DNA from: an uncultured Opitutales bacterium
Lineage (GTDB): Bacteria > Verrucomicrobiota > Verrucomicrobiia > Opitutales > CAZQIE01
DNA: 64,000 nucleotides
Direction of reading: 5' to 3'
NCBI GenBank assembly: GCA_964593675.1
Contig: CAZQIE010000007.1
Span: 671-64,670 of the forward strand
Shown: piece by piece, positions 589-61,300 of the stretch
How the letters are laid out: each line of letters opens with the position of its first letter
Numbering within the stretch: position 1 is the stretch's first letter
Translations under genes and position numbers: made by a program
The notes under the pieces: generated by a model
Told to the model about the DNA's origin: nothing
The model's database searches: none
The model's input: the letters and a program-made list of their open reading frames with translations, nothing else

Positions 589-602
589 TTGGACCAGCCC
601 GC

Positions 603-13307: not shown

Positions 13308-13350
13308 GCTCCGTGCGCCGCCCTCCATCGCAGCCACCTCCTTCCCTACC

Positions 13351-16813: not shown

Positions 16814-16893
16814 GCCGCCCGTTCTCCATCCCCGCCCGCTTTAGCAGCCCCCGGGTCGCCCGGAGGCACAACCTTCCGATTTCTCCCCCTGCC

Positions 16894-29422: not shown

Positions 29423-29472
29423 GCGTCCCTTATCATCCGGTTTCCGGCCCCCGCTATCAACGTGCGCCCGCG

Positions 29473-29486
29473 CGAAACCGTTGACA
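29473..29486 (-). promoter_or_regulatory. Glycan-locus box TGTCAACGGTTTCG
   Basis: 61 nt upstream of the start at 29422. CGTTGA follows 17 nt after AAC. Confidence 0.5.
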
Positions 29487-31603: not shown

Positions 31604-31740
31604 GGATGCTGAGCCTCGATAGGGAAATAGGGTTTGACCGTCTTTGGTGCCTCAACGGGGTCCTGGCGTTTGAAGCAGTGGGATTTCAGCCGTCTAGTTC
31701 ATTCTGCACAGGGCAGGCCTCCCGGAAATGCTGCAACAGG

Positions 31741-31753
31741 CGAAACCGTTGAT
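31741..31753 (-). promoter_or_regulatory. Glycan-locus box ATCAACGGTTTCG
   Basis: 147 nt upstream of the start at 31603. On the coding strand it is preceded by a small hairpin GGGCTaaaAGCCC plus TTTT (31774-31790). Confidence 0.5.
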
Positions 31754-33960: not shown

Positions 33961-36765
33961 TCAACGCGGCCGGGGTCCTTGGCGGGCATCCGCCGGCACA
34001 CGGCCCTGGAGGACTTCGGCTACGGATGCGGGGGTTGCGGTCGTTTCGAAGTAGAGCAGATCGGCAGAGGCCTCACAGGGCCCGGAAATCCTGTTTCCCC
34101 AAAGATCGCGGGCCACCCAACCTCTGGGCACCTTCGCGAGCTTCCATGCCGAAAAGGACGGAGCGGTCGTCACGACGGCAACGGTGCGGCCCTTTCCTGC
34201 GAAGACCCACGCGTAGACGCCCTCGGCCAGCGAAACCTGGCGGTCGAACTTCAGGTCCTCAAGAAGCCACTGCATTGCCGCATCGGCCACTGCAGTGGGA
34301 TGCACGGCGCCCCCGTTGCCGCGCGCTTCCCGAAAACCTGCAACCGTCTGGCTGCCGTCGAAGAGATCGAACCCATGCATCGCGTAGGCGAAATACTTCT
34401 CGCCGCCAGCTGCCAGCGTCGAGAGGCGGTAGCGCACCTCTTCGCGCGAAGCCATGCGCCAGTCGTCCTTGTTCTCGTAGGGAAGCGTGTGCTTCCAGAG
34501 GCCGTCCCGCGTCGAATCGCGGTTTGAGCCGCCCTCCGTCATCCAGACGAGCATGCCGAGGGTCCCGTCTGCCCGCGCGGCGCGCACTGGCCCGGACACC
34601 AAAGGCAGGCCATTCCTGAAAACGGCATCGTCGGGGTAGCCGCTCGGCGAGGACACATACGAGTGGTATGAGAACCCCGAAGGCGCGGGCGCCTTGAGCC
34701 CGTGTGCGTCGACAAGCGCCTTCACCCAAGCCACGCCTTCGTGGTCGCCGGTCGCATTGAAGCCGAATACCGGTTTGCCAGGAACGGTCTCGCCTGCGAC
34801 GCGCACGGCGCGCTGGGTGAGGTCCGCGTAAGCGGCGGCGACTGTGGGCAAGGGGTCGCGCACGCCACGTGGAAACTGCTTTAGCTGCGCGGGGTCCCAG
34901 CGGCGCCAGAAGTTTGGCAGCCACGGCTCGTTCCATACTTCCCAGGCCGCGACCTGCCCAGCGTAGCGCGTGGTGATCGTCCTCACGTAGTTTTCCCAGT
35001 CAGGCAGGTGCTCAGGCTTTGGCTGAAGGTAAGCGTGATCCCAGAACGCCGTGCCGGGGCTGCCATTGGCCCAACCGGGCGAAGTGGACAACATCCCGAG
35101 GACAAGAAGGTTTTGGTCTCTGTACTTTTTGAGAAGCTCGTCGCGCCAGACCCACTGGCCGGCCTTGGGCTCCACATGGTACCAGCTCGTGATCGTGTTG
35201 CCCGTGTCGTGCAGACGCACCCAATTGTGGCCTGTGGCCTTGGCCAGCACGAGGCTGCGGTTGAGGTGCCCCACGTGTACGCCGAAAGGTGACTCCGGAG
35301 CGTCCTTGCCCCAATAACGCGGGCGCGGCAGCCTCGCGACGACAGTCTCGGCAATCGGGCTTATGACCTTGCCGGCTGCATCCACGACCGAGGCCTCAAC
35401 GCGAAACAGGCCTGCTGAGCGTGAAGGATCGACGAGCCCGCCGAAGTCCAGCGCCAAGGTCTCCAGCTTCGTCCCGGCCTGAAGCCCACGCAGCGGCGCC
35501 TTGCGCGTGTTGCCGTAAAGGTCGGTCGCCGAAATCGCGAGGCGGCAACCGGCAGGCAAAGGGCCGCACACGGCGAGGTTCAGGGCTGCCGGCTCATCCA
35601 AGAACTGGATGCCCGCCGCCGACGCATCACTCCGCGGAATCGCCAGCGCGACTTCAGCCTCCGCGGACGGTGCCCAGGCAGAAGGCGCCTCGCCCACTTC
35701 AAGCTGAAGGGCGTCCAGCCAGACGGGCCCGGCCGTCTCCAGTGCGAAAAGGTGAACCGGTCCGCGCAACTGCGGCAGGAACGGCAACACCACCCGTTGC
35801 CACTGATCGCTTGCAGAGAAGCCCGCCCGCCCGAGAATGTTTGCGCGATTACGGGGGTCCCCGCCCTTCAACACCAGAAGCTCGCCCGGGGCTTTGGCCT
35901 TCACGTACAGGCTCAAGACGTGATTCGAAAACGTCCATTGGACGGGCAAGGGCGCGGAGTAGAAGGCGGCCTTTTCATTTGGCGCAAACTTCAGGGCAGG
36001 CAAACCGCTTGGCCCACTGGTCTCAGCAGGGTCAGCGGCGAACTCAGCCTCCGCGTCGTCGAGATTATACGCCAACACCCAGGCCGGAGGTGCGCCCAAT
36101 GGGAAGCGCGAGCTCGTCGCCCGGTTGCCGGGCTTGCCACCATCCGGGAACGCCGCTTTCAGGTCCGCCACAATCTCGTCGCGGCTGAAACGCTCGATTC
36201 TGATCGACTGGATCTCGACGGTGCCGGCACCCCCGCCGGGCAACTGGAACTGGAAGTACGGCTTGGCCTGCTCGCCCACGGCCGGCGCGATGAACTCATA
36301 GACAAATGTGTTCCATTCGGCGTACAGGTTAACGTCCGTGCGCCACGGTGCCTTCTGCTTGGGCACGATGATGATTGCGTGGAAATTGCGGCTGTCCGGC
36401 GTACGTGCGCGAATCGAAACGCGGTAGAGGCAAAGGTCCGGTTGCGTCAGGCCCGGGTCAAAACGGATCTGCGCGTGGCCTTTGTCGCCGCGCCGGATGC
36501 GGAGGAATTTCACCCCCGCTTCCTCTTCCACCGTGTAGGCCACTTCGACTTCCTTGTTGAAAGCAGAGTCGTCCTTCCAGCCCTTCGGAAGCACGCCCTG
36601 GATTGACTTGCCGGGCGCGGAAACCCGATTAAGCGGCTCGAGGTTTTCCGCGAAAACGGTGTCCACGATGACCTCCGCACGCGCAGGCGTTCTCCCGGCC
36701 GCAAGCAGCACGCCGAGCGCAAACAGCGGGAGCAGGACGAGATAATAAGCCTGACGAGTTTTCAT
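33961..36765 (-). CDS. Secreted glycoside hydrolase, clan GH-A TIM barrel with N-terminal beta-sandwich modules
   Basis: ATG at 36765 gives the signal peptide MKTRQAYYLVLLPLFALGVLLAAGRTPARA. The C-terminal part has HNWVRLHD and WEVWNEPW (NEP acid/base motif). The exact family is not assignable by eye. Confidence 0.6.
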   Translation of the reverse strand: MKTRQAYYLVLLPLFALGVLLAAGRTPARAEVIVDTVFAENLEPLNRVSAPGKSIQGVLPKGWKDDSAFNKEVEVAYTVEEEAGVKFLRIRRGDKGHAQIRFDPGLTQPDLCLYRVSIRARTPDSRNFHAIIIVPKQKAPWRTDVNLYAEWNTFVYEFIAPAVGEQAKPYFQFQLPGGGAGTVEIQSIRIERFSRDEIVADLKAAFPDGGKPGNRATSSRFPLGAPPAWVLAYNLDDAEAEFAADPAETSGPSGLPALKFAPNEKAAFYSAPLPVQWTFSNHVLSLYVKAKAPGELLVLKGGDPRNRANILGRAGFSASDQWQRVVLPFLPQLRGPVHLFALETAGPVWLDALQLEVGEAPSAWAPSAEAEVALAIPRSDASAAGIQFLDEPAALNLAVCGPLPAGCRLAISATDLYGNTRKAPLRGLQAGTKLETLALDFGGLVDPSRSAGLFRVEASVVDAAGKVISPIAETVVARLPRPRYWGKDAPESPFGVHVGHLNRSLVLAKATGHNWVRLHDTGNTITSWYHVEPKAGQWVWRDELLKKYRDQNLLVLGMLSTSPGWANGSPGTAFWDHAYLQPKPEHLPDWENYVRTITTRYAGQVAAWEVWNEPWLPNFWRRWDPAQLKQFPRGVRDPLPTVAAAYADLTQRAVRVAGETVPGKPVFGFNATGDHEGVAWVKALVDAHGLKAPAPSGFSYHSYVSSPSGYPDDAVFRNGLPLVSGPVRAARADGTLGMLVWMTEGGSNRDSTRDGLWKHTLPYENKDDWRMASREEVRYRLSTLAAGGEKYFAYAMHGFDLFDGSQTVAGFREARGNGGAVHPTAVADAAMQWLLEDLKFDRQVSLAEGVYAWVFAGKGRTVAVVTTAPSFSAWKLAKVPRGWVARDLWGNRISGPCEASADLLYFETTATPASVAEVLQGRVPADARQGPRPR

Positions 36766-36891
36766 GGGTAGACGGGGTTGCTCGCGATTGCGGACAAAAC
36801 CGGGCTTGCGGGGTGGGCCGGTTGTCCAGCGCGGGACTATCTCCGCTTCTGATCTTATATTCTTAGGGACAAACGGGAACGTTCGCCACGT

Positions 36892-36904
36892 TGAAACCGT
36901 TGAC
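36892..36904 (-). promoter_or_regulatory. Glycan-locus box GTCAACGGTTTCA
   Basis: 136 nt upstream of the start at 36765. Two more AACG copies follow at 9-nt spacing, and CGTTCC lies 17 nt after AAC. Confidence 0.5.
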
Positions 36905-37055
36905 CCTGGCTGAACCCTACGCACGGTCAAAAAGAAGAGAGCACATTCCGGTGGTCGCCCTCCCCACTTTTGTTTGCTGCCCTGCTCCACGATTTCAGCT
37001 ACAGCCCGGTTGTGGCAGCCAGTGCCCTTTTGAGAAATTACCCACGCGCGCGGAC

Positions 37056-37069
37056 GTGAACGCTTTTTT
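37056..37069 (+). promoter_or_regulatory. Glycan-locus box variant GTGAACGCTTTTTT
   Basis: 94 nt upstream of ATG 37153. This is the weakest match in the set. Confidence 0.35.
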
Positions 37070-37152
37070 GTGGGCGCCGCCCAACCGGCCCGGCCACCGT
37101 GCACCCAATGCTCGCCGCAGAGCGTTCCTCATCCCCGTTTCGCACAAAGATC

Positions 37153-39050: not shown

Positions 39051-39884
39051 TTAGGCCGAAAGGCGACGACGGAGCGCGGCGGCCAGTAGCGCCACAACGC
39101 CAAGCCCGGCTGCGTAGGTGGAGGGCTCAGGAACCGGGCTGCCCAGATTCTGGCCGCTCACGTCGACGTAGATGTTGTCGATCCAGAACGGGTCCTGCCC
39201 CGCGCTTGCGCCACCACTGCGCGCAGCGAAGTACCGGAGCGTGCCGACCGCTGAGTCCGTAGCGAACGCAACGTTCGTGGCAAGCGCCGTTTGGGTGGCG
39301 TAGGCGCCGGAGCCGCCCTGGATGTAGACGTCGTAAGTGCCGGCGGTGTTGTTCAGCACGAACCATACGCTGTAGAGCGTGCTCGCGACGATCGTGTTGT
39401 TGGCAATAATGGTGCCCGTATAGCCCGCCCCCGACCGGTCGGAGAGGGAGTAGTTCGGGCCACCGCCAGAGATGTAAAGCTGGGCGCCACGAACCGTGGA
39501 AGCGGAGTTGAAATTGAAGGCGTTAGACAGGTCAGAGATACCGAACGACAGCGTGGGCGACTGGCTGCCCGTATCGTCGATTTGGAACTGCATGAACAGT
39601 GTGCCTGTGGTGCTGGTCGCGACACCTTGCGCGGCACCCATGTCCAGGCGGCTGCGCATGTTCGCCGCAGTCCACTGAACGGCCTTGCCGCTTCCGAAAG
39701 TGGCAACCGTCGGGTCCGCACCGACATTTCCGGTCCACGCCGTGCCGACGGCGGAGGTCTGGCCGTTGACGGCGCCAAGCGTGTCACCATCGAAATTATC
39801 TACCAGCACGAAGGCAGCACTGGCGGCCTGGGTGGTAGCGAGCAGGGATACCAGTGCGATGAACTTGTTGATGGGCGTATTCAT
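39051..39884 (-). CDS. PEP-CTERM sorting-domain protein with lectin/LamG-like N-terminal domain (paralogue 1)
   Basis: Signal peptide MNTPINKFIALVSLLATTQAASA. C-terminus VPEPSTYAAGLGVVALLAAALRRRLSA (PEP motif, TM helix, basic tail). Confidence 0.85.
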   Translation of the reverse strand: MNTPINKFIALVSLLATTQAASAAFVLVDNFDGDTLGAVNGQTSAVGTAWTGNVGADPTVATFGSGKAVQWTAANMRSRLDMGAAQGVATSTTGTLFMQFQIDDTGSQSPTLSFGISDLSNAFNFNSASTVRGAQLYISGGGPNYSLSDRSGAGYTGTIIANNTIVASTLYSVWFVLNNTAGTYDVYIQGGSGAYATQTALATNVAFATDSAVGTLRYFAARSGGASAGQDPFWIDNIYVDVSGQNLGSPVPEPSTYAAGLGVVALLAAALRRRLSA

Positions 39885-42247: not shown

Positions 42248-42307
42248 AAGGAGGGATTTTCGCCCTATCTTATGCGATCCATCCCAACGGATGAATTTCG
42301 CTGCTTT

Positions 42308-42320
42308 CGAAAGCGTTGAC
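42308..42320 (-). promoter_or_regulatory. Glycan-locus box GTCAACGCTTTCG
   Basis: 70 nt upstream of the start at 42247. A second half-copy, CCACCGTTTTC, lies at 42321-42331. Confidence 0.5.
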
Positions 42321-42357: not shown

Positions 42358-43620
42358 TCATAAGCCCGCACCGTCGCTCCGCAGGAGCTCATCAAGCCAC
42401 AGGTAGGTCGCAGCGGTCCAGCCCATCATTGGCGGCGTGGCGTACTCGGAGGATGTGTCCTTCAGCGGGTCATTGCCGTTGTACTTTTCCCACAATTGTC
42501 CCGTTTCCCGGAAACTCAGGTTCATGCCTTCGAGAAACTTCCGTGCGAGGCGCAGCGCATCGTCCCTGAAGCCGTATTTGAGCAGACCTGAGATTGCGAT
42601 GTATTGCAGCGGTGCCCAAACGTTTGGCGCGTCCCATTGGTACTCGCCAACGCGAGGCCCGGGCGCACACGTGAGAAGCCCGTAGCGTGCTTCGAAGAGG
42701 GGCAGATTGTTCGCCACCGCAGCCGCCTGCTGCGCGGTTGCGATGTCTGCCCAGAGCGGAAAGAACGTGGCAAGGCTTGGAATCTCCGGATGGGTGTTCC
42801 GCTCGAAATTCCAGTCTGCAAAAAGCTGCTGCTTCGCGGACCAGCACAACACGCACACGGCCCCGGCGATCTCCCTCGCACGTGCCCGCCATTGCTCGGC
42901 TTCTTCGCGCGCTCCCACCTGATCGCAGAGCTGGGCCATCACACCGCGGGCCTTGTACAGGATGCAGTTGAGGTCCACCGGTGCGTGCTTTACGCAGGCG
43001 CCCCCAAAGCGTGGCGTGAAGTCCCAACCGCTCTCGCCCTCCGCTCGCAGGCTTTCGACGATGCGCTGCTTTTCCGCATCCGTGTGCTCGGTTTTCCACT
43101 TCAGACGCGTACGTGCCCACGCGTAGAAGTCGCGAAAGTCCGAGCCGGGAAGCGTCGTCCCATACCGGCAAAGGCCGCTCGGGTCCACGACCCGGGTGTC
43201 CCAAAACTTCATTTCCACGCGCAGGGCCGGAAGCGCCCGCTCCGCGAACTTTACGTCAGGCGCGGCGTCGAACAGGTCCCCGACCGCCAGGGCCGTGAGC
43301 GGAGGCTGGGAACTGGAAAGTCCCCAGAAAGTGTTCGAGCCCGGTACGTACCCAAACGTCTGCGCTTCAAAAAGGAGGTTCTCGACGTTGTCTGCCGCCC
43401 AGTCCCGCCGCCCTGAAAGCAAGAGGCCGACGTTTGTGAAATACGTGTCCCAATAGTAAAACGCCTGAAGGTCGTCGCTCACGCACGGGACCAGGTAGGG
43501 CTTCGGCAAAGCGAAAACCCCGAACGCTTCACCCGCCTCTTTGTTGCGGCGGCAGCGTCCCCAGTTCTCCGAAATATATCCGATTACCTGGTCGTTCGTC
43601 GTGGCTGTGGCTGTAGTCAT
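42358..43620 (-). CDS. Trehalase-like glycoside hydrolase (GH37-like)
   Basis: FYYWDTYFTNVG and QWDAPNVWAPLQ match the two trehalase signature regions. 420 aa, no signal peptide. Confidence 0.75.
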   Translation of the reverse strand: MTTATATTNDQVIGYISENWGRCRRNKEAGEAFGVFALPKPYLVPCVSDDLQAFYYWDTYFTNVGLLLSGRRDWAADNVENLLFEAQTFGYVPGSNTFWGLSSSQPPLTALAVGDLFDAAPDVKFAERALPALRVEMKFWDTRVVDPSGLCRYGTTLPGSDFRDFYAWARTRLKWKTEHTDAEKQRIVESLRAEGESGWDFTPRFGGACVKHAPVDLNCILYKARGVMAQLCDQVGAREEAEQWRARAREIAGAVCVLCWSAKQQLFADWNFERNTHPEIPSLATFFPLWADIATAQQAAAVANNLPLFEARYGLLTCAPGPRVGEYQWDAPNVWAPLQYIAISGLLKYGFRDDALRLARKFLEGMNLSFRETGQLWEKYNGNDPLKDTSSEYATPPMMGWTAATYLWLDELLRSDGAGL

Positions 43621-43657: not shown

Positions 43658-46600
43658 TCAGTTACCGGTGATCTTCAGGCGCAGGAAGCGCGGGCCGGTT
43701 CCAAGCGTCGTCGAATCCGTCACCTGGACCGTGCGCGCTCCGATCCCCGTGTCACTTACGGAACTGAGGCCACTGAGCGGCACGGTGGCGCCGCCGCCAG
43801 TGCTGCGGGCTACGTCCGTCCAAGGTCCGTTCACGTCCGTGGACGCCTGCACGGTGTACACAAGGTCAGTCCTGGCCGCGTTGCATTTGAAGGATAGGCG
43901 CAGTGCGCCGGAAGACGCCGCGATGGCCGGGTTCGTGGAGTATACGTCCGCGACAGATGGATTTCCGCCAAGCGCGTATTCCTCGAGGTTGGTAAGGCCG
44001 TCGTGGTCAGGATCGGCGAGGTCCGCGGCATTGCCACCGTTCAGGTAGGTCGCGAAATTCGAGAACCGCCACGCGTCAAGCGGGGTCGCCGCCGCCGTCG
44101 TCGCCGAGACAACGGCGCTGTATGGCGAATTTCCGTCGGCGCTCGTCGCCCTGACCCGGTAATGATACGCAGTCGCGGGCGTCAGACCCGCATCAGCAAA
44201 GGCCGTAGTGGCTGCACCGGGCGGTGTGGCCACTTCTGAGAACGGCCCGGTCGGGGAAGTGGCGCGCTCAACGCGGTAGCCCGTTACCCACGTGGCATCG
44301 CTGGCGTTCGTCCATGACACGTTGGCTCCGGTTGCGCCATTGGCGGAGACCTGGAGGTTCGAGGGCGCCGCCGGCACCGTGGGCACGACGCTGGCGTAGG
44401 TCGGCCCGGCCCGTATTTCGTCGAACAGGAAGGGCGTCCCGCTTGCAGTCCGAACCAGCACCCGGTCAAACGAGATGTCTCCGGTTGTCGTGTAACTGCG
44501 GGTCGCCGTGGCGTTGGCCGGCGCAGACCCACGAGGGTCGGGGTTCACATAGAACGTCACGGTCCCTCCGGCCACCCCGCCTCCCGCGCCAAACTCGATT
44601 TTTGCCACGAGCAACAGCGGCACCCCTTGTGTCGAGGTCGTGGATGTGAACGTGTTCTGCATCGAGACCGTGACACCTTGTGCAGACTTGTTGCAGGCCA
44701 CACCCAGATTCACATTGCTGCCGTCAATGCGCCCCATGTTGAAGGCCGTTCCTGCCACCGAGCCACCGCCGGCCGCAGAACGGTCGCACTGGAGGATGGC
44801 GTAGTCGTTCGTCACGGCATTGTTGTCTGTCATGACTACCGCAACCCAAAGCGTCTTGTTGGCAGCCCCGACGCGCCCGTTAGCATCAAGGAAGCCGCCG
44901 AGCGCGAGGGCGCCGCTTCCCGATGCGTCGAGAAGACGGTGCGCGATTGCTCCGTCCGAGGTTGCCTGGTTTCCGCTTGTGGCGACGGCCGCGCCATTTT
45001 TTGAAAATTCTGCGGACCCCTCCGTCGCGTTTACGCGAACGATCGTGTAATTGAAGCTCAGCCATCCGCCGCTCCAACCGCTCCCACCCGTCTGGCCCGG
45101 ATTCGTCGCATGGTTGGCGACAACCGCGCTGGTCGCGTAGTTGAAACCCTCATACGCGAAAGGCGCCACAACCTGGCTCGCTGCCGAAGCTTCGGCAGAA
45201 TAGGTCGAGGAGACGCCGGACATCGTGGCCTTCACGCGGTAGTAATACGTCGTCCCGGAAACGACGCTGAGATCCGTGTATGCCGTTGCGTTGGCACTCG
45301 TGGTTGTCAGCGGAGAAAACCCGCTGCCCGACTGCGTGCTGCGCTCCACGATAAAGCCCGTCTCATTGCCACTGTTGTCAACCCACGATAGATCGACGCG
45401 CGCATTGCCGACCGCCTGTGCCGTCACCCCTGTGGGCGCCGCAGGCGGCGTGATCTGAAGCGTGGCGCTGGCGCTGGTCGTCGTCCCCCCCGTGTTGGTC
45501 ACAAGACAACGGAATTGGGAGCCATGATCCGAGACGCCAACCGCGGCTGTCGTGTAGTTTGCGGTCAATCCGCCGGTTCCCGAAGACACGTTGGCCCACT
45601 CGCCGCTCCCATTGGGACGGCGCTGCCACTGATAAGTGAGGAAGCCGTTCGAAGCCGTGACGCCGAAGCTCGCCGTCGCGCCGACGTCAACGGTGGTCCC
45701 CTGAGGCTGAGCCGTGATCGACAGCGCCGGCGGCGGCCCATACGTGATGGTTGCGGTGCCGAAGACTGCGCCGCTTTGCGCCCGGACCGTGGCCGTGCCG
45801 GAACCGCTTGCCGGCGCGGTGTACAAGCCCGACGCGCCAACCGTGCCCGCCCCAGTCGGGAGGGACCACGTGAACGCGGGAGCCGGTGTCATTTCGACGC
45901 CATTCTGGTCCAGGGGAGTCGCGGTCAGTTGCTGAGCTTCGTTCCAGAAAATGCTCGCTGAGGCAGGGCTGACCGTGATGGACGTAAGCGTGCCGTTCGT
46001 CGACGGTGTAGTCACGGAAACCGTGTTCGAATACGCGGAGGTACCGTCAGCGCTGTCCGCGCGGACGCGGTACGCATACTCGGTTGCCGGGGTGAGCTGG
46101 GCGTCCGTGTACACGGCATCCGTCGGCGTGGCAATTTGGACGAAGCCGCCGCCGCTGTTGCGCTCCAGCTTGTAGCCCGTGGCCCAACCCGAGGCCGCCG
46201 TCCAGGACAGGTCCACAAGGGTCGCGCCCGTGGCAGCGGCCTGCAGAGCCGTCGGCGAGGCCGGGCGTGTCGGCAGCACCGACGCGTAACTCGTGCCTAC
46301 CCGCAGTTCGTCGAAGAGGAACGGGGTGCTCCCTGTGCGGACGTAGATGCGGTCAAAGGAGATGTCACCCGTCGTCGTGTACGTCTGCGTCGATTCGGCA
46401 TTCTGGGGGACCGACCCGCGCGGATCTGGGTTGTAGTAGACCGTGACGGTACCCCCGGCAGTCCCACCCGTGGCGCCAAATTCCACCTTGGCGACGACGA
46501 GCACCGGAATCCCTTGGCTGGTTGTCTGCGAGGTGTAGTTCTTTTGCAGCGCGACCGCTACCCCCAAAGCAGACTTGTTTACCGACAACCCTAGATTTGC

Positions 46601-49600
46601 GTTCGTGCCGTCAATGCGGCCAACAGCGAAAGCAGCGCCCGCGGCGGCACCGCCAGCCGTACCGGAGCGGTCAGCCTGAATGATCGCGTAATCGTCGGTT
46701 CCTGCATTGTTGTCTGTGATTACCGCAGACAGCCAGAGCGTCTTGTTTGCGGCGCCCACCCGCGCGTTGGCGTCGATATAGCCAGCCAGACCGAGGCCCC
46801 CGGAAGGCGATGTGTCGAGCATGCGGGTCGCGATAGAGTTGTTCAAACTCGCCTGATTGCCGGCCGCGACGACTGTCGCTCCGGCTTTTGAAAACTGCGC
46901 CGACCCGTTCCCGTCGACGGTCGAAGTGCTGTAGTTGAAACTCAACCACGAACCGCCCCAGCCGCTCCCGCCGTTCTGGCCGGCATTCGTCGCGTGGTTT
47001 GCAAGAACGGCGCCTCCGGCGTAGTCGAAGTTTTCCACCACAAGGGCCGCAGGTGCGGTCACCGTGATGGACGCCTCGTTGCTGTAGGCGGAGCTTCCGG
47101 CGTTGCTCAGCGCTTTCACGCGGTAGTAGTAGGTCGCGCCCGGAGTGAGCCCCTCGTCCGTGTAGGACAGCGCTCCTCCGGTGCCGAGCGAGAACGGGAT
47201 CTGGCTGGAAACCACCGCATACGTGCCACCGACGCCGAGCTTACGCTCCACCGCGAAACCGGTCTCGTTTGTCCCGTTGTCCGTCCAGGTAAGATCGACG
47301 CGCGAACTGCCCACCACGCTCGCGGCGAGCCCGGAAGGTGCGGTCGGAGCAACAGCCACGGCATTTATGCGCAGGCGCGCGGCGCCGTTCTGCCAGTCGG
47401 AGCCTTCCCCTATGATCTGCACCGTCGCATCTTTCTCGCAGAAGCTGGCATCCGGGCTGGTCGTCGTGTCGCCCACAAGGATGAACGTGAGCTTCTTTGC
47501 GCCGGTGCGTGTATTGATGAACGTGACAAGCGGAGATCCTGCCTCGCCCGAGACCGTGAGCCTCGTACCCTTCGCCATGGAGGGCGAGACCGTCAGCTTC
47601 CCGATCAGCGTGCACTTTGCTTCAACCACGCCATTGGCGCTGGCGTTGGCCGGCGCGTTATTCCAGGTGATGGAGGTCTCGGACCAGCCGTCGAGGCTGT
47701 GGTCCGTCATCCCGTATACGCGAACCACGCGGTCTACGCTGGCGGTGCCGACGGAGACCAGTTCCAGCGCGGCACTCTGCACAGTTCCGGTGAAGGAGGA
47801 GGCATCAAATTTGACGTAGCTCTTCAGGTTCAGCGCAGTCCCAATATCCGGCGGCACGTAGCCCACCCGGAGGATGGTTACCCCGTTCTGGTTGCTGTCC
47901 CCCAAAGTGCCGCCGTCATAGCGTTGCACAAAGGAGTCCTCTGCCGCCAACAAGCGCACCGTTCCGGTCGTCCAGGTCGTATCGCCCGCAACGTCGCAGG
48001 GGGCGGACGTGCCGCCACCGGCGTTGGCGTTTACCGCGCTCACGCGGAAGTAATAGGTCGTGTCGGACGAAAGTCCCGTGACGGTGTGCGTGATGAGGCC
48101 GCCCGTGGCTGAGCTCGTGGTGCTCGTCTTGGTTGTCAGAGTGGACCATGTCCCGCCGCTCCCCATCTTGTACTCGATCAGGAAGCCGGTCTCGTTGACC
48201 GAATTGTCGGTCCACTTCAGCGCGATTGAGGAGTCGTTCGTGGCGGTCGCAAACAGCGACGACGGCGAGGTTGGAACCGGATTGGGAAGCGTGGAGACGG
48301 ACGCTGATACACTGCTGTAGGCGGAATTCCCGAAGTCGTTCTGCGCGCGGACGCGGAACACGTAAGCCTGGTTGGGCAGCAGGCCGGTCGCTGAAAGGGA
48401 TGTGGTGCCCGCCGTGACCGTCGCCAGGTCCACCCACGAGCTTCCGGCGTTCGTGCTGCTCTGGACCTTAAACGTCATTTCGTTGGTGGAGTTATCCGCC
48501 CAAACCAAGTCGATCCTGCTGTTCGAGATCACGGTAGCCGTAGGCGCACCGGGCACCGCGGGTGCCGCAAGGGCCGCAGATGGCGTCGCGGATGCTTCCG
48601 CTGAATACGCGGAGTAGGCGTCAAGCGTGAGGACCCGCACACGGTAGTAATACGTGGTTCCCGCGACGACGGTCGTGTCGGCATACACGGTGGCAGCGGC
48701 CGCAAGGCGGGCGATTTGCGCAAAGGTCCCGCCTGCCCCTTGTTTGCGCTCAACAAAGACGTCCGTGATGTTACTGGCCGAGTTTGTCCAGGACAGGTTT
48801 ATTTGGCTGCTCGTTACGGCATTGGCCGCAGGCGACGCCGGCGCAGGAGGCGCGCTCACCGTGCCCGCCAAGTACGACACCGTTCCGCTGTAAGCGGAGT
48901 CCCCGTGCATGTTGAACGCGCAGATCCGCCAAGAGTAGTTTGTGCCCGCGGTGAGCGCGTTTGCCGCATAGGAAGTCGTGTTCTCAGGCAGGATCGCCAA
49001 CGTGGTCCACCCGGTCCCCGTGTTCTGCTCGAGGCGATATCCCAGTTCGTTCACCGCATTGTCGGTCCAGGAGACCACTGCACGGGAAGCCGACGGATTT
49101 GTATATCCCAGGGCCGTCGGGGCAGCAGGGATTGGAATATAGGGAGAGAGCACCGACGCGGGGATGACCTCGTCGGGCTGCTCCGCGTTGGGTCCCCCGC
49201 CGTTCGGCTTTGACCAGGCCAGGGTCGCGCAGTCCTTGCCGTCATGGCTCGCAACCAGCAGCTCAAAATAATACGACTGCCCCGCGGTGAGAGTGACCCA
49301 CGAAACGGGAATAGCAGGCGTCTGGCCGCTCGAGTTCTGGTCGGCGCGGGAATTCCAGACCTGGTACGTGCCATTCACGATTTTCCCGATCGCCTGGGAT
49401 CGCAAATTCGCCGGGCTGGCATCCGAGGAGAGCCAGAACTCGCCGTTGAAGTTACCAGCCACCCAGAACTTATACTGCCCCGTAACGGGCGCGGTAATGT
49501 ACCCGCGGATGCGTTCGCCGAATTTCCCAGTCGTGTTGCGGGGCGCATTGGCTCCATTTGCAACGAAGGACCTTCCATGGGGCTGGTTCGGGTAGTCCGC

Positions 49601-51994
49601 AAAGGCTTTCAGGTTGATGACGCTGAGCGCACCAGCCTGATTGAGCGGCACGTTCCACCAGTAATCTCGCATAAGCGCGTTGGCCTTGCCGTCTCCCGTG
49701 GTCGTGCTGTACGGGCGTATCGCGGACGCCGGAATCACCTCCCGGCTCTGAGCGGTCGAGGTATCGCTTCCCGGCAATTGCCAGGCCAGGGAGAAATGGT
49801 GCCCGTAGTCTGAAATGCCCCGATGGCGAATCTCAAAGTAATACTCCTGACCCGCAACGAGCGTGAAGCCCGCCGGAAAGAGGGCATCACTTGAGCGTTC
49901 GGCTGCAAGGTCCCAGGCGCGCAGCGGCACGTTCATTGAGCCGGTGACCTTTGCCGCCAATGTGCCCGGCGTTGCCGTCCCTGCGGCATTAAAATAGAAC
50001 TCCGCCGCACCCTCGGCGCTGAGCCAGAAGCGGTAGGTGCCCGATATCGGCGCGCGCAAATAGCCGCGGACAACTTCCGCGCCGCGTGTCTCGAAGACCC
50101 CTGGCGTGCTTTCGAGGATGGTCTGGTAGAAGTACGCGCGAGGCAGGTTGTCGCGGTACGCGGCATCATTGAGCACACTGAAGAAACCGTTGGACGCCGG
50201 CCCGTTGCCGCCCAGGGCGGTAAACACCTGTAGCTCGATGTTGCCGAGAGCCGTCCGGCGGGGCGTCTCCGGCTTGTACGGAACCAGTGTCGAGTTTGCA
50301 TCCAGTGTTACGCCGCCAAGCCCGCTCAGGGCTCTCCAGGCGCTCCAGAAGGTGCGGGTGCTGTTGTTGATCACAAAGCCTAGACCCGAATCGTGCTGAT
50401 ACGTATTGCCGCTCGCGGTGAGCGTGTTGATGGCGTCGGGGTCCGTTGGGAAGAGGATAAGCGGGATGTGCGGGCTCGGTGACACCACCGTGTTCCCCTG
50501 GATCACCCATTCGCGCGAGTGGATCTGGTCGGACGTGCCATAGCTGACGAGCGTGCTCAAGTTTGGATCATTGTCCGTGTAGATACGGAATTGCAGCGGG
50601 TCGGCACGATCGAAGGCCACGCGGGACCGGATCTGGTAGCCGCCGTTGTTCGCGATCGTGTTGTTGAGCAACTGCACCTTCTCGGAACTCATCGCCGTAA
50701 CGCCGATTCCGTTGTTCGTGATGGTGGAGTTCTTCACCACGTACGGGGCCTGTCCGGGAATGACGCTGCTGATCTCAAAGGCCACGCCATCCTGGTTGCC
50801 CGATACCGTGCAGCCGTCCACGGTTATGCCACCCGCGCAGGTATCGAACCAGAAACCTTTGGTCAGGTTGTCCCGGACGGTGAGGTTCCTGAAGGTGGAG
50901 TTGTAGATGTTGTTGAAGCGCAGGGTGCCGTCCGTCCACCCGTAGTAGTTGCCCCAAAGCCACCGCCAGCCATTGCGTTCAAACGTCGAGTTTTCAACCA
51001 CTGTGTTCGGCCCCACCTGAGCGATGCCGCCGCCCCCGTTGTCGGACGACACGACATTGCGCACCGTGGTGTTCATCGCCTGGAGCTGCATGCCGGACGA
51101 GTTGTTCCAACTTGAGGTGACGTTCTCAACCAGCAGGCCCTTGGGCCTAACATGGTTGCTGGAGTCGTAGGGCTTGCTTCGGACGCAGAAGGCGATGTCG
51201 TCGTTTTCGACCCAGCTCGCAAAGCGCTGAAACACGAGGTTTCGGACCACCAGGTTCGAGATCCCCAGGATGAGCAGCCCTTTCGTACGCGTCGCGATTT
51301 TTACGTCGGCTGTGGACGGGTTCAGGCCGGAGGGCGGCTGGATGTAGATGCGCTGGTTTGTATCGTCGACGTAGAACGTGCCCCACGTCATCTCGCCAAG
51401 CGAAAGCTTCTGCTCCAGCAGCTTCCCGTTCACAAAGACCATCTCGCGCCGGTAGGCCAGGTCATTTGGGGTGGAGACGCCCGCAGTCACCCCGGACAGC
51501 ACGCTAGGCAGCTTACCCCAACCCTTGTTCCACGCAGTGTAGTACCGTGGGGTTCCTCCGTCCTGCGTCCAGCTCGTGTACGCATCGGCGCCTTCCAGAA
51601 TCACACCACCCGCGCTTTCACCTTCAATGACGAGGCAGGCGCCGACGTTCCGGGCTTGCGTGGCCATGTAGGCGCCGCTGCCTGCAATGGTGTACGAGTT
51701 CGCGCTCCCGCCGATGTCCAGGGTTGCCGACTCCTTATACGTGCCGTTGCGGATGATGACCTTCGACTTCTCTGGGGTCGCTGCCGTGTACTTTGCCTTG
51801 GCCGCATTCAGGCCCTCCTGAATCGTTTTGAACGGGCTGGCCGCCGTTCCGGTGCCCGTCACGGGAACCGAGCCGTCCACATAAAAAATATTTGCGGCCG
51901 GTATGCTGGTTTCGTCTATGGCCGCCCCCTGGGGGTCTGCCGCCAGAGGTAGAGCGAGCAGGGCAAGCCAGAGGCAAAGGAGTAGTGCCTTCAT
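43658..51994 (-). CDS. Giant secreted multidomain protein: beta-helix, 2x PA14, 8x Fn3, DNRLRE-like, 2x ~260-aa GWxGxW domain, BIG2/Ig, acidic DPDHDG motif
   Basis: 2778 aa with signal peptide MKALLLCLWLALLALPLAADP. Approximate domain boundaries from my own residue counting:
- Parallel beta-helix repeats (NLVVRNLVF, NSTFERNG, VKNSTITNNG), about 50400-51900.
- PA14-like 49775-50250 and 49200-49675 (GTYRFWLSAEGAAEFYFN; GQYKFWVAGNFNGEFWLS).
- Fn3 x4, 47978-49135.
- DNRLRE-like 47351-47977.
- Fn3-domain-Fn3 super-repeats.
- BIG2 plus Ig 45446-45991.
- C-terminal DPDHDGLTNLEEYALGGNP. Confidence 0.9.
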   Translation of the reverse strand: MKALLLCLWLALLALPLAADPQGAAIDETSIPAANIFYVDGSVPVTGTGTAASPFKTIQEGLNAAKAKYTAATPEKSKVIIRNGTYKESATLDIGGSANSYTIAGSGAYMATQARNVGACLVIEGESAGGVILEGADAYTSWTQDGGTPRYYTAWNKGWGKLPSVLSGVTAGVSTPNDLAYRREMVFVNGKLLEQKLSLGEMTWGTFYVDDTNQRIYIQPPSGLNPSTADVKIATRTKGLLILGISNLVVRNLVFQRFASWVENDDIAFCVRSKPYDSSNHVRPKGLLVENVTSSWNNSSGMQLQAMNTTVRNVVSSDNGGGGIAQVGPNTVVENSTFERNGWRWLWGNYYGWTDGTLRFNNIYNSTFRNLTVRDNLTKGFWFDTCAGGITVDGCTVSGNQDGVAFEISSVIPGQAPYVVKNSTITNNGIGVTAMSSEKVQLLNNTIANNGGYQIRSRVAFDRADPLQFRIYTDNDPNLSTLVSYGTSDQIHSREWVIQGNTVVSPSPHIPLILFPTDPDAINTLTASGNTYQHDSGLGFVINNSTRTFWSAWRALSGLGGVTLDANSTLVPYKPETPRRTALGNIELQVFTALGGNGPASNGFFSVLNDAAYRDNLPRAYFYQTILESTPGVFETRGAEVVRGYLRAPISGTYRFWLSAEGAAEFYFNAAGTATPGTLAAKVTGSMNVPLRAWDLAAERSSDALFPAGFTLVAGQEYYFEIRHRGISDYGHHFSLAWQLPGSDTSTAQSREVIPASAIRPYSTTTGDGKANALMRDYWWNVPLNQAGALSVINLKAFADYPNQPHGRSFVANGANAPRNTTGKFGERIRGYITAPVTGQYKFWVAGNFNGEFWLSSDASPANLRSQAIGKIVNGTYQVWNSRADQNSSGQTPAIPVSWVTLTAGQSYYFELLVASHDGKDCATLAWSKPNGGGPNAEQPDEVIPASVLSPYIPIPAAPTALGYTNPSASRAVVSWTDNAVNELGYRLEQNTGTGWTTLAILPENTTSYAANALTAGTNYSWRICAFNMHGDSAYSGTVSYLAGTVSAPPAPASPAANAVTSSQINLSWTNSASNITDVFVERKQGAGGTFAQIARLAAAATVYADTTVVAGTTYYYRVRVLTLDAYSAYSAEASATPSAALAAPAVPGAPTATVISNSRIDLVWADNSTNEMTFKVQSSTNAGSSWVDLATVTAGTTSLSATGLLPNQAYVFRVRAQNDFGNSAYSSVSASVSTLPNPVPTSPSSLFATATNDSSIALKWTDNSVNETGFLIEYKMGSGGTWSTLTTKTSTTSSATGGLITHTVTGLSSDTTYYFRVSAVNANAGGGTSAPCDVAGDTTWTTGTVRLLAAEDSFVQRYDGGTLGDSNQNGVTILRVGYVPPDIGTALNLKSYVKFDASSFTGTVQSAALELVSVGTASVDRVVRVYGMTDHSLDGWSETSITWNNAPANASANGVVEAKCTLIGKLTVSPSMAKGTRLTVSGEAGSPLVTFINTRTGAKKLTFILVGDTTTSPDASFCEKDATVQIIGEGSDWQNGAARLRINAVAVAPTAPSGLAASVVGSSRVDLTWTDNGTNETGFAVERKLGVGGTYAVVSSQIPFSLGTGGALSYTDEGLTPGATYYYRVKALSNAGSSAYSNEASITVTAPAALVVENFDYAGGAVLANHATNAGQNGGSGWGGSWLSFNYSTSTVDGNGSAQFSKAGATVVAAGNQASLNNSIATRMLDTSPSGGLGLAGYIDANARVGAANKTLWLSAVITDNNAGTDDYAIIQADRSGTAGGAAAGAAFAVGRIDGTNANLGLSVNKSALGVAVALQKNYTSQTTSQGIPVLVVAKVEFGATGGTAGGTVTVYYNPDPRGSVPQNAESTQTYTTTGDISFDRIYVRTGSTPFLFDELRVGTSYASVLPTRPASPTALQAAATGATLVDLSWTAASGWATGYKLERNSGGGFVQIATPTDAVYTDAQLTPATEYAYRVRADSADGTSAYSNTVSVTTPSTNGTLTSITVSPASASIFWNEAQQLTATPLDQNGVEMTPAPAFTWSLPTGAGTVGASGLYTAPASGSGTATVRAQSGAVFGTATITYGPPPALSITAQPQGTTVDVGATASFGVTASNGFLTYQWQRRPNGSGEWANVSSGTGGLTANYTTAAVGVSDHGSQFRCLVTNTGGTTTSASATLQITPPAAPTGVTAQAVGNARVDLSWVDNSGNETGFIVERSTQSGSGFSPLTTTSANATAYTDLSVVSGTTYYYRVKATMSGVSSTYSAEASAASQVVAPFAYEGFNYATSAVVANHATNPGQTGGSGWSGGWLSFNYTIVRVNATEGSAEFSKNGAAVATSGNQATSDGAIAHRLLDASGSGALALGGFLDANGRVGAANKTLWVAVVMTDNNAVTNDYAILQCDRSAAGGGSVAGTAFNMGRIDGSNVNLGVACNKSAQGVTVSMQNTFTSTTSTQGVPLLLVAKIEFGAGGGVAGGTVTFYVNPDPRGSAPANATATRSYTTTGDISFDRVLVRTASGTPFLFDEIRAGPTYASVVPTVPAAPSNLQVSANGATGANVSWTNASDATWVTGYRVERATSPTGPFSEVATPPGAATTAFADAGLTPATAYHYRVRATSADGNSPYSAVVSATTAAATPLDAWRFSNFATYLNGGNAADLADPDHDGLTNLEEYALGGNPSVADVYSTNPAIAASSGALRLSFKCNAARTDLVYTVQASTDVNGPWTDVARSTGGGATVPLSGLSSVSDTGIGARTVQVTDSTTLGTGPRFLRLKITGN
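44381..45175 (-). repeat. Giant protein module B of the ~260-aa domain (aa 2274-2538)
   Basis: QVVAPFAYEGFNYATSAVVANHATNPGQTGGSGWSGGWLSFNY...KTLWVAVVMTDNN...FLFDEIRAGPTYASVVP. Collinear with module A along the whole length. Confidence 0.85.
46271..47047 (-). repeat. Giant protein module A of the ~260-aa domain (aa 1650-1908)
   Basis: ALVVENFDYAGGAVLANHATNAGQNGGSGWGGSWLSFNY...KTLWLSAVITDNN...FLFDELRVGTSYASVLP. Confidence 0.85.
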
Positions 51995-52103
51995 GTTTGG
52001 GGGTAGAAACTGGGTAGAAGGCGCCGAAGGGCAGACGAACCCACACCTCCGGTCGCTAATGGATTATTTCACCACCTGCCCGCTTTGGAACGACATCGTC
52101 TGT

Positions 52104-52116
52104 CGAAACCGTTGAC
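52104..52116 (-). promoter_or_regulatory. Glycan-locus box GTCAACGGTTTCG
   Basis: 119 nt upstream of the giant-gene start at 51994. CGTTCC lies 18 nt after AAC. Confidence 0.5.
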
Positions 52117-56238: not shown

Positions 56239-57063
56239 TCAGGACCTACGGCGCCGCAGAGCCACGCCCAAAGCCGCGGCACCCGCAAGGAGGGCATACG
56301 TGGAAGGCTCAGGAACCGGCGTGCCCAGGTTCTGTCCGCTGGCATCAAAATACAAGTTGTCGATCCACTGAGCGTCCTGCGCCGTGCCCGAACCCGCGCT
56401 CCGGGCGGCAAAGTAGCGCAGCGTGCCTACCGCGGAGTCCGAGGCAAACTGCACGCTGCTGGCGATCGCTGTCTGGGCGGAGTAGGAGCCGCCTTGGATG
56501 TAGACGTCACTCGTGCCGGCGTTGTTGTTCAGCACGATCCACATGTTGTAGAGCGTCCCAGCGTCGATGGTCCCATTCGCGATGGTCGTCTGGGTGAAGG
56601 ACGAGCCCGCACGGGTGCGAAGCGTGTAGGTTGGGCCCGAGCCTGAAAGCTCGATAATCGCACCGCGCACCGAGGCCGCGGAATTGAAATTGAAGACGCC
56701 GCTCAGATCTGAAAACCCGAAAGAAAACGCCACCGCATCGGAGCCGGTGTTATCTACCTGAAACTGCATGAAGAGCGTCCCGGTAGAGCCCACCGTGACG
56801 CTCTGCGCAGCGCCAAAGTCGAGGCGACTGCGGTAATTCGCGGAGGTCCACTTCACAGCATTTCCCCCACCGAACGCAGCCACCGTCGGGTCCGCGCCCG
56901 CGTTGCCCAGCCAGGTTGTGCTGACGGCGGAGGTCTGCCCGTTCAAGGCCCCCGGCGTATCGCCGTTGAAATTATCCACGAGAACGAAAGCGGCATTCGC
57001 AGCAAGCGGCACCAGGAGCGAGACCGCGGAAAGACCAAGCTTCGACAGGCAATGGGTAGTCAT
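56239..57063 (-). CDS. PEP-CTERM sorting-domain protein with lectin/LamG-like N-terminal domain (paralogue 2)
   Basis: Collinear with 39051..39884 (AFVLVDNFNGDTPGALNGQTSAV...GTLRYFAARS...WIDNLYFDASGQNLGTPVPEPSTYALLAGAAALGVALRRRRS). Confidence 0.85.
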   Translation of the reverse strand: MTTHCLSKLGLSAVSLLVPLAANAAFVLVDNFNGDTPGALNGQTSAVSTTWLGNAGADPTVAAFGGGNAVKWTSANYRSRLDFGAAQSVTVGSTGTLFMQFQVDNTGSDAVAFSFGFSDLSGVFNFNSAASVRGAIIELSGSGPTYTLRTRAGSSFTQTTIANGTIDAGTLYNMWIVLNNNAGTSDVYIQGGSYSAQTAIASSVQFASDSAVGTLRYFAARSAGSGTAQDAQWIDNLYFDASGQNLGTPVPEPSTYALLAGAAALGVALRRRRS

Positions 57064-57157: not shown

Positions 57158-58180
57158 TTACGTTGTAAAGCCAACCTTCCACTTCCCCCGGATGTAAATC
57201 TCCTTGGGGCTCTCCGGAATGCCCCGTTCATTGCTGCTTGCCTGCGCCACGACTGCATCCACGGCCGCTGCCGCAACAAGCTTCTCCAGCGGGTCGACGC
57301 CCGACCAGCCTTCGACGTCCGGTGAGAGCGCCGTATGGATGAGGGCGACGTCTTCAGGCACACGCACGCCGATGCTCTTCAGGGCATCAAGGACGCGATA
57401 ATCCCGACACACGACAACCTGTGGCTTGTGCTTCTTGAACCAGTCCAGAAAGCTCGCGACGTACTCAGGAGACGGCAGGTTCGGGCGGTGGATGGGTATG
57501 CGCTTGTTCTCCGGCAAGGTCGCATTCATGAGCCCGTACCGCATCGAGTAGCATTGCTCATAGGACTCATCCACAACCTTGGCCACCGTAAGGCCCACGG
57601 TCGCACGCCGAAGCTTGATCGCCCGCCGCAGGGCCTCGGACACGTTCGCGGCCTCGAAGATGTCCGCACGACTCAGGGAAGGACGGAACACCCCGCGCCC
57701 CAGACACACGGCTGAAAGCTGGTCCCACGGCAAACACAGGCGCGAGCGTGGCGCCCGCATCGGGGGGATGAGCACGCACCGGATTCCCCGCGCCACCAGG
57801 ATCTTCCCCAGGCGCGATTGCGTCATCTGCGGCTGTCCCAACCAAAAGTTCTCCAGCTTGTAGCCCAATTGCAGGGCCCGGTTCTTTGCCCCTTCCCAAA
57901 AATCCCGCACCCACGGCGTCTTTTCGAAAAAGTCCTTCTCCGGATATGGGTTTACCCAGGCAACGACCTCCGAGTCTTGCGGGCGCCTTCCCGCGCGGAT
58001 GTGGGCCATAAGGGCAGCGACCTGCGCGTTCGGGCAATAGCCCACCTCTTCCGCGACTTTCTGGATGCGTTCGCGGGTGGCGACGGGGATCCGCGGGTGG
58101 TTTCTCAGCGCGTACGAGACGGTGGAGACGGTCACCCCGGCTGCCCGGGCAACAGTGTGTAACGTAGGACGCGGTTCCAT
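57158..58180 (-). CDS. LacI-family transcriptional regulator
   Basis: ATG at 58180. HTH TLHTVARAAGVTVSTVSYALRNHPRIPVATRERI followed by a periplasmic-binding-protein-like sugar-binding fold. Confidence 0.85.
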   Translation of the reverse strand: MEPRPTLHTVARAAGVTVSTVSYALRNHPRIPVATRERIQKVAEEVGYCPNAQVAALMAHIRAGRRPQDSEVVAWVNPYPEKDFFEKTPWVRDFWEGAKNRALQLGYKLENFWLGQPQMTQSRLGKILVARGIRCVLIPPMRAPRSRLCLPWDQLSAVCLGRGVFRPSLSRADIFEAANVSEALRRAIKLRRATVGLTVAKVVDESYEQCYSMRYGLMNATLPENKRIPIHRPNLPSPEYVASFLDWFKKHKPQVVVCRDYRVLDALKSIGVRVPEDVALIHTALSPDVEGWSGVDPLEKLVAAAAVDAVVAQASSNERGIPESPKEIYIRGKWKVGFTT

Positions 58181-58284
58181 GCGCTCTTGGGTGGGCGCAT
58201 GATGCCGACAATCCCGCCGCCCCCGCAATTCTATTTCATCATCTCGGAAGCGGCTTGAGGCTTACTAAGCCACGTCACATGGCG

Positions 58285-61128: not shown

Positions 61129-61287
61129 TAGGAAATGCGGTTGTTTCTGGGGCTTCAGGAGCCCGGCAAGCGAGCAGACAGAGGGCGAGCAGGCTGTGTC
61201 AAACGGCGAATAATGGGGGCCCCAGCGGCTTGGTTAAGATGCGGCAATTTTGCACTTTTTAATCCGGAGTTCAGAGCCCAGGCCCGT

Positions 61288-61300
61288 CGAAAGCGTTGAT
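61288..61300 (-). promoter_or_regulatory. Glycan-locus box ATCAACGCTTTCG
   Basis: 169 nt upstream of the start at 61128. Confidence 0.5.

Follow-up and report, generated by a model that had tools for sequence, protein, structure and literature searches.

A giant secreted protein and its domain map

The stretch analysed here (the window) is 64,000 nucleotides of contig CAZQIE010000007.1 from an uncultured Opitutales bacterium of the Verrucomicrobiota, and its most conspicuous feature is a giant minus-strand gene set among genes for carbohydrate-active enzymes. The gene is a single open reading frame (ORF) extending from the ATG at 51994, the earliest possible start 3' of the upstream in-frame stop, to the stop codon at 43658-43660, and encodes a protein of 2778 aa. 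At 63% GC, the chance that 2778 codons would occur without a stop is, by our own calculation, ~7e-35 and the ORF is genuine. At the N-terminus stands a typical Sec signal peptide, MKALLLCLWLALLALPLAADP, written with its cleavage site as MKALLLCLWLALLALPLA/ADP. The uninterrupted 8.3-kb ORF with a signal peptide, described in the original prediction from the sequence letters, is confirmed. Beyond the signal peptide, no segment in the whole 2778 aa has the hydrophobicity of a membrane helix. Two other routes to the surface were considered and rejected: a lipoprotein, as Cys7 lies outside any lipobox, and an autotransporter, as Pfam gave no beta-barrel domain match and the C-terminus is too short. 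An identical protein is present in the public protein collection (NCBI) and forms a singleton cluster at both 90% and 50% identity, and no orthologue was detected when residues 1-950 were used to scan 185,579 species genomes. A conserved glutamate dehydrogenase encoded in the window shares no more than 70% identity with any entry of that collection, and the host accordingly lacks a close sequenced relative.

The order of domains proposed previously was borne out nearly throughout by searches of Pfam, in which matches were judged against gathering scores, and NCBIfam, judged against curated cut-offs; the Pfam search had been suggested as a check on the beta-helix and PA14 assignments and supports both (Table 1). 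Beta_helix, two PA14, eight fn3 and CBM96 matches all exceed the Pfam gathering scores. Matches to Beta_helix, NosD and DUF1565 fall within aa 280-451, with Pfam Beta_helix scoring 54.7 bits. PA14 (PF07691) scores 49 bits over two stretches of the whole protein, the cut-off being 24, and 33.8 and 28.6 bits when the two halves are scored separately. The fn3 family (PF00041) scores 192.9 bits over eight stretches, each copy being confirmed both piecewise and by internal BLAST. A beta-sandwich following the first four Fn3 domains is recognised by CBM96 (PF24517, 55.9 bits, cut-off 26) and by DNRLRE_dom (NF033679, 51.7 bits, cut-off 34). Residues 1346-1458 also match the CBM96 of the alginate lyase Dp0100 (PDB 7vbo, E 3e-7), although the match covers only about two thirds of the model and the rest of the locus shows no alginate lyase. 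CBM96 has been described as alginate-binding or alginate-specific (PMC9971899).

The duplicated super-repeat claimed for the C-terminal half is genuine, as aa 1550-1988 and 2184-2625 are 57% identical across 448 aa (E 7e-140); each copy encloses one module, termed X here, between two Fn3 domains. The super-repeats are separated by two Ig-like domains for which both Pfam matches remain under the cut-off, Big_2 (PF02368) with 18.8 bits against 22.8 and Ig_3 (PF13927) with 20.6 against 30. An Ig-like fold is nevertheless likely for aa 2063-2182 because this region is matched by an Ig-like phage tail protein (9c2d) at E 3e-10. Giant multimodular secreted carbohydrate-active enzymes (CAZymes) are a known kind of protein and most modules present here are standard. 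Three parts are not: a beta-helix belonging to a tiny, divergent clade related to glycoside hydrolase (GH) family 120 with an apparently rebuilt pocket, the unmodelled module-X family, and an unmodelled, strictly C-terminal domain.

Table 1. Positions of the features discussed, numbered along the window
Feature	Residues (aa)	Coordinates	Strand	Basis or remark
Whole gene		43658..51994	-	2778 codons + stop, one unbroken ORF
Sec-type signal peptide	1 to ~19	51938..51994	-	sequence reading, hydrophobicity
GH120-like right-handed beta-helix with inserted beta-sandwich	20-580	50255..51937	-	profile, model, Foldseek
Asp384, aligned with XylC nucleophile Asp382	384	50843..50845	-	profile alignment; PMC3507262
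Glu407, aligned with XylC general acid/base Glu405	407	50774..50776	-	profile alignment; PMC3507262
PA14 domain 1	~600-762	49709..50197	-	Pfam, internal BLAST
PA14 domain 2, 32% identity to domain 1	~788-952	49139..49633	-	Pfam, internal BLAST
Four tandem Fn3	955-1335	47990..49132	-	Pfam, internal BLAST
CBM96/DNRLRE beta-sandwich (match 1346-1458)	1346-1548	47351..47959	-	Pfam, NCBIfam, PDB 7vbo
Super-repeat 1, Fn3-X1-Fn3	1549-2001	45992..47350	-	
Module X1	~1649-1910	46265-47050	-	
Two Ig-like domains (Big_2-like, Ig_3-like)	2002-2183	45446..45991	-	sub-cut-off Pfam
Super-repeat 2, Fn3-X2-Fn3	2184-2635	44090..45445	-	
Module X2	~2279-2539	44378-45160	-	
Strictly C-terminal conserved domain	2636-2778	43661..44089	-	homologue alignments
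Calcium-loop-like motif DPDHDGLTNLEEYALGGNP	2661-2679	43958-44014	-	
Locus box GTCAACGGTTTCGACA of the giant gene		52101-52116	-	106 nt upstream of the giant-gene ATG
Other boxes preceding minus-strand genes		42305-42320, 36889-36904, 31738-31753, 29470-29485, 61285-61300	-	
Trehalase-family (GH37/GH63-like) gene		42358..43620	-	Pfam E 8e-68; no signal peptide
Stand-alone secreted module-X paralogue, 273 aa		28601..29422	-	profile search

The N-terminal beta-helix and its relationship to GH120

The beta-helix family is small, with 14 homologues detected among 5.8 billion cluster representatives, 20-33% identical to the query and most of them secreted proteins of 560-1000 aa. Comparison of the family profile with the PDB placed XylC (3vst), the GH120 enzyme of Thermoanaerobacterium saccharolyticum, at the top with E 1.2e-30, while the next structure followed at 3e-10. 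Matches at 3e-10 or worse comprise an unannotated parallel beta-helix protein, AlgE epimerases and the GH141 enzyme BT_1002. The first of these, PDB 9rx2, is an unpublished 717-aa 'parallel beta-helix repeat protein' and the second-best match of the profile (E 3e-10); a literature search found no paper on it. An AlphaFold 2 (AF2) model built on the family alignment has a predicted template modelling score (pTM) of 0.76 and a mean predicted local distance difference test score (pLDDT) of 73 and is confident only over aa 21-460, where it consists of regular three-strand coils. Foldseek also ranks XylC first for this model (E 6e-15), with BT_1002 at 2e-9. BT_1002, an alpha-L-fucosidase of Bacteroides thetaiotaomicron (5mqp), and the AlgE mannuronan C5-epimerases are second-tier matches by both fold and profile which have an N-terminal cap motif in common with the giant protein, YV...G.D.N.GT...P..TI..A......G..I.....G.Y.E, but they score 5 to 20 orders of magnitude worse in E-value than XylC does.

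In XylC, Asp382 is the nucleophile and Glu405 the acid/base, and the substrate is contacted by W113, H352, E353, K358, H360, W383 and R450 (PMC3507262). Residues were transferred by aligning both proteins to the beta-helix family profile. D382 maps to D384 and E405 to E407 with identical 23-residue spacing, and D384 and E407 are each kept in at least 90% of the family. The lysine that holds the nucleophile, K358, is conservatively exchanged for R359. The remaining contacts differ, H352 corresponding to W353, E353 to T354, H360 to N361, W383 to T385 and W113 to T175, so that the stacking and hydrogen-bonding residues W113, E353, H360 and W383 are all replaced; R450 falls outside the alignment. 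Because D384 and E407 are conserved and the substrate contacts are not, the alignment suggests that the catalytic machinery of a retaining glycosidase has been kept while the xylose pocket has been rebuilt. With the -1 subsite altered in this way, the sugar removed is likely to be other than beta-xylose.

The likeness to XylC lies in the right-handed beta-helix and the matching Asp/Glu positions, identity to the giant protein's helix being only ~12%. According to PMC3507262, XylC carries a beta-sandwich inserted at residues 76-200, after the N-terminal cap, and its 638-aa chains form a tetramer and bear no additional modules; the corresponding domain of the giant protein, by contrast, sits at the head of 2778 secreted residues. 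The family profile alignment runs through XylC residues 3-228, including the insertion, and the model contains strands in this region with loops of low confidence. XylC is cytoplasmic. The label that can be defended for the family is 'GH120-like clade'. Assignment to GH28 or to a polysaccharide lyase (PL) family was rejected, as such structures rank far under XylC in Foldseek. The earlier suggestion of a putative catalytic beta-helix is thus strengthened by the GH120-like fold and the retention of both catalytic carboxylates, while the GH28- or PL-like nature proposed for the helix finds no support from the AlphaFold model and Foldseek. The same prediction allowed for a surface depolymerase and suggested pectic or galactan substrates. 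Both ideas are unproven, as the enzyme nearest to the helix, a retaining beta-xylosidase, is exo-acting and binds its substrate through other residues, and nothing specific speaks for the substrates named.

A different chemistry would follow if the protein cleaved as a lyase, or epimerised, an acidic polymer with uronate residues in the manner of AlgE or of PL6 and PL9, aided by an alginate-type CBM96 and by jelly rolls resembling PL20 and PL7. The helix does match AlgE4 and AlgE6, an alginate epimerase/lyase (E 1e-6 to 1e-9) and PL6 and PL9 structures by Foldseek and profile, CBM96 is described as alginate-specific, and the second gene downstream encodes a heparinase II/III-like protein. We consider this very unlikely, however, as XylC is far the best match by profile and by fold and the residues matched are its hydrolytic pair; the evidence from module X, described below, points the same way.

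Module X and a conserved C-terminal domain

Relatives of module X were obtained with a profile of X1 and X2 in a HMMER scan of 1.84 billion representatives, which yielded 217 proteins. Nothing useful came from a word-index search or from a profile search of PDB sequences, and no Pfam or NCBIfam family matched the module, even at E<=1. Many of the relatives are proteins of 260-300 aa with a signal peptide and a PEP-CTERM anchor, characterised by the N-terminal motif FDY..G...GG.GW.G.W and the terminal strand FDEIRxGTTYADV, and others carry two to four X copies in tandem. The AF2 model of X1 (pLDDT 87.8) is a concanavalin A (ConA)-like jelly roll. Foldseek returned 143 PDB matches to it at E<=1e-3, the best 50 of the 143 all being ConA-like, and the matches include the PL20 glucuronan lyase 2zzj, calreticulin, botulinum Hc-N/NTNHA, PL7 enzymes and peanut and legume lectins with template modelling scores (TM-scores) of ~0.4-0.5. 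The family has no conserved catalytic signature, its invariant residues being structural (F, G, W and the DEIRxG of the last strand). As a ConA-like jelly roll lacking such a signature, module X is read as a lectin-like binding module. The PL20 and PL7 enzymes among its top fold matches would suit a lyase, but TM-scores at this level reflect only a generic shared fold and the family does not conserve the His/Tyr/Gln set found in PL7.

A stand-alone secreted paralogue of module X is encoded in the same locus and matches X at E 3e-15 with the two-sequence profile and at 2e-67 with the family profile. Unlike many members of the family, this protein has no PEP-CTERM tail, ending instead in ...FDEVRLGLTYDEVMPVAP, and a copy of the locus box described below (29470-29485) stands 47 nt upstream of its gene. 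Two paralogous PEP-CTERM proteins of ~275 aa, 66% identical to one another, are encoded around the neighbourhood of the giant gene at 39051..39884 (-) and 56239..57063 (-); both begin FVLVDNF.GDT.GA.NGQTS and show a weak match to the X profile (E 4e-7 and 1e-4), to which the PEP-CTERM tail contributes.

The giant protein terminates in a domain of a further kind, made up of a WR..F motif, the calcium-loop-like segment listed in Table 1, a beta-rich part and the terminal strand RFLRLKITGN. A word search found three relatives, each bearing the region at its own C-terminus, and an alignment scan of metagenome contigs extended this to at least 267 confirmed loci. Full-length matches number 56, and in all but one of them the domain ends 0-9 aa before the stop codon; of 24 partial matches, most leave ~30-50 residues before the stop, which is room for the remainder of the domain. 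Nearly all carriers terminate in RF[LIM]RL[RK][VI] followed by 1-5 residues, and the consensus is P...WR...F...D.ADPDxDGLxNLxEYALGxxP ... L.LTF.R.....D..Y.VE.S.DL..W ... RFxRLxV. A single locus (L145, contig Ga0065721_10003680, ~1-9300), which contains three consecutive or overlapping module-X ORFs, has a match to the domain 356 aa before the stop, which may reflect a frameshift in the assembly or an internal copy of a rare kind.

Carriers of the domain range from ~200 to more than 2100 aa and many of the complete ones begin with a signal peptide. The passengers are diverse, including Calx-beta, subtilase, M23 peptidase, Kelch propellers, an FAD oxidoreductase with Golvesin_C, MBG, PATR and pectate-lyase-like helices, and no Pfam family is common to them. 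Passengers of the module-X type reveal a relationship with a known anchor. Many PEP-CTERM surface proteins, the substrates of exosortase, have ectodomains homologous to module X, whereas the giant protein ends in the ~140-aa globular domain. Of 150 representatives of the module-X family, 52 carry a PEP-CTERM-like tail at their end and 13 the C-terminal domain, while none has both; the proteins sharing the latter ending include tandem-X proteins of two to four copies (e.g. P0019, P0021, P0025, P0077 and P0137). An X-type passenger therefore uses one ending or the other, and, at the level of these sequences, such a pattern is the 'choice of anchor' logic by which sorting signals are recognised.

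The original prediction stated that the protein ends without a PEP-CTERM, LPXTG or type IX sorting signal. With respect to known signals this stands: searches of Pfam and NCBIfam with the last 147 aa gave nothing at E<=1, the models for PEP-CTERM (PF07589/TIGR02595) and for the type IX secretion system (T9SS; PF18962/TIGR04183/TIGR04131) included, this region contains neither a PEP motif nor a hydrophobic segment, and LPxTG is absent throughout the protein. It does not stand if taken to mean an unmarked end, as the position is occupied by a conserved, strictly C-terminal domain that alternates with PEP-CTERM. In the carriers, the calcium-loop motif gives weak NCBIfam matches, to the Amuc_1099 family only, and a literature search on the motif (LEYALG, DPDHDG and similar) found nothing. 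By analogy only, the domain recalls the C-terminal domains of T9SS substrates in Bacteroidota (Por_Secre_tail/TIGR04183), which are beta-rich, 80-140 aa long and strictly C-terminal on unrelated secreted proteins, with a conserved last strand and with substrates scattered in the genome. It differs from them in having no sequence match, in the phylum in which it occurs, in an extra calcium-loop-like motif and in that no machinery is known here.

This behaviour led us to propose, tentatively and with more doubt than confidence, that the C-terminal region is an undescribed sorting or anchoring domain of Verrucomicrobiota-type diderms, parallel to PEP-CTERM/exosortase or to the T9SS C-terminal domain. 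Were this so, it would mark hundreds of enzymes and adhesins for surface export or retention, with the giant protein as one cargo, an extension that we regard as equally tentative. The simpler possibility is that the enzyme is freely released and that its C-terminal domain merely binds a ligand or calcium, in the manner of a TSP3 or dockerin module, with no part in sorting. Its DPDHDGLTNLEE motif fits the general pattern of EF-hand/TSP3-type calcium loops, and the beta part of the domain is faintly Fn3-like; an Fn3 identity for this part was rejected, hhalign against the protein's own Fn3 domains giving only 23% probability. No gene for a sorting machinery is linked to the carriers, as would be expected of a mere binding module. 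Such a module would not, however, be expected at the last residues of ~99% of its carriers, nor to have RFxRLxV as a fixed final strand with 1-5 aa left to the stop, nor to replace PEP-CTERM on homologous passengers, and we judge free release distinctly improbable.

The carbohydrate locus and a proposed role for the protein

The box claimed upstream of the giant gene is confirmed. Sites related to the consensus (G/A)TCAACG(G/C)TTTCG occur seven times in the window, where 0.72 are expected, and six of the seven precede minus-strand genes, among them the giant gene and those for the stand-alone X protein, the transporter, the heparinase-like protein and GH3. The box is often followed 17 nt on by a CGTT-like element and ~30-36 nt on by an A/T-rich hexamer resembling a -10 element, as seen by eye. 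It could be an extracytoplasmic function (ECF)-type promoter element (GTCAAC-N17-CGTT) or the site of a regulator, a LacI-family member being encoded at 57158..58228. Equally confirmed is the 37-nt gap that separates the giant gene from a trehalase-like gene whose product has no signal peptide. The gap contains no terminator-like site and the two genes are probably co-transcribed, since the next box is found only at 42305-42320.

The surrounding 40 kb encodes GH2, GH42, GH13 and GH3 enzymes, two GH95-like enzymes, a heparinase II/III-like protein, an SSF-type transporter and the LacI-family regulator, together with sugar-isomerase-like and dehydrogenase genes and two URO-D-like genes. The hydrolases of the locus, as called, have no signal peptides, and the idea of an extracellular enzyme-like protein amid such hydrolases holds. 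The giant protein is not, as had been thought, the only obvious component of this type. An ORF called at 33961..37104 (-) from a GTG at 37104 contains the box 36889-36904 inside its 5' end, and its true start is likely the ATG at 36765. Translated from this ATG, the product is 934 aa long and has a clear signal peptide, MKTRQAYYLVLLPLFALGVLLAAGRTPARA. No Pfam family matches it over threshold, and one stretch, aa 509-626, weakly resembles GH39 beta-xylosidase, PslG and GH10 (PDB 6uqj, E 0.0016). This protein may be a second secreted glycosidase, and because of its signal peptide and this stretch the giant protein is not the sole secreted candidate enzyme of the locus. The stand-alone module-X protein and the two PEP-CTERM proteins are also secreted. 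The two URO-D family genes, at 58285-59424 (-) and 61360-62385 (-), are unusual among the glycosidase genes of a carbohydrate locus. Upstream of the locus, a chemotaxis-type cluster at 5586-18315 (+) encodes CheR, CheB, hybrid histidine kinases, an HD-domain response regulator and a CheA-CheW fusion.

The genomic setting also bears on whether the protein is an enzyme at all. As an adhesin or surface-coat protein it would bind glycans of a host, prey, particle or its own exopolysaccharide through its beta-helix, PA14, CBM96 and ConA-like modules without catalysis, the Asp/Glu pair being a relic or a feature of binding. PA14/GLEYA domains are typical of adhesins, the many Fn3 and Ig spacers recall bacterial adhesin architecture, the residues with which XylC binds its substrate have not been retained, and members of the beta-helix family also occur outside carbohydrate loci. 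However, both catalytic carboxylates and the Lys/Arg partner have been retained across a family only 20-30% identical, and the gene lies within a glycoside-hydrolase locus with which it has a putative regulatory box in common and is probably co-transcribed with a trehalase-family hydrolase. A purely adhesive function is therefore unlikely in our view.

The reading that we prefer, with slightly more confidence than doubt, is that the giant protein is exported by Sec, is probably kept at the surface and acts as a multimodular retaining glycosidase with a GH120-like head, a series of binding modules and a C-terminal address or anchor, and that it feeds the cytoplasmic hydrolases. Asp384, positioned by Arg359, would act as the nucleophile and Glu407 as the general acid/base in removing a sugar that is probably not beta-xylose. 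The two PA14 domains, the CBM96/DNRLRE domain and the two ConA-like X modules may bind glycan, while the eight Fn3 and two Ig-like domains would serve as spacers keeping the enzyme off the cell. The last ~140 aa would direct crossing of, or attachment to, the outer membrane, in the role that PEP-CTERM has for other module-X proteins. Oligosaccharides released or trimmed outside the cell would be imported by the SSF-type transporter and finished by the GH2, GH42, GH95-like, GH3, GH13, trehalase-like and heparinase II/III-like enzymes, with the genes of the locus presumably placed under common control by their shared upstream box.

Several observations weigh against this reading. When the beta-helix query was searched alone, as a single sequence, XylC was not matched at E<=10; the link depends on the 14 intermediates and on a model whose pLDDT is 73 and whose quality is low past aa 460. 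Six active-site residues of XylC differ, five of them (W113, H352, E353, H360 and W383) being exchanged for unlike residues and K358 for Arg. To our knowledge, the characterised GH120 enzymes are intracellular exo-xylosidases and not surface depolymerases. The genomic contexts of two beta-helix homologues are non-carbohydrate loci and are uninformative. Finally, clustering of the genes beside carriers of the C-terminal domain revealed no recurrent partner, so there is no candidate for a sorting machinery.

Verrucomicrobiota are major degraders of complex glycans, and the way in which they display their extracellular enzymes is poorly known. If none of the three non-standard parts behaves as proposed, the giant protein is a well-annotated but ordinary giant multimodular CAZyme. 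The divergent GH120-like clade with its rebuilt pocket may hold a new specificity or a new CAZy family or subfamily, and the unmodelled ConA-like module, common to many small PEP-CTERM proteins, offers an entry point. The lead most worth following is the widespread, strictly C-terminal domain, which behaves like a sorting signal and matches no known one. If its sorting role is true, it would represent a new protein-sorting system and provide a simple tag with which to predict surface proteomes in the phylum.

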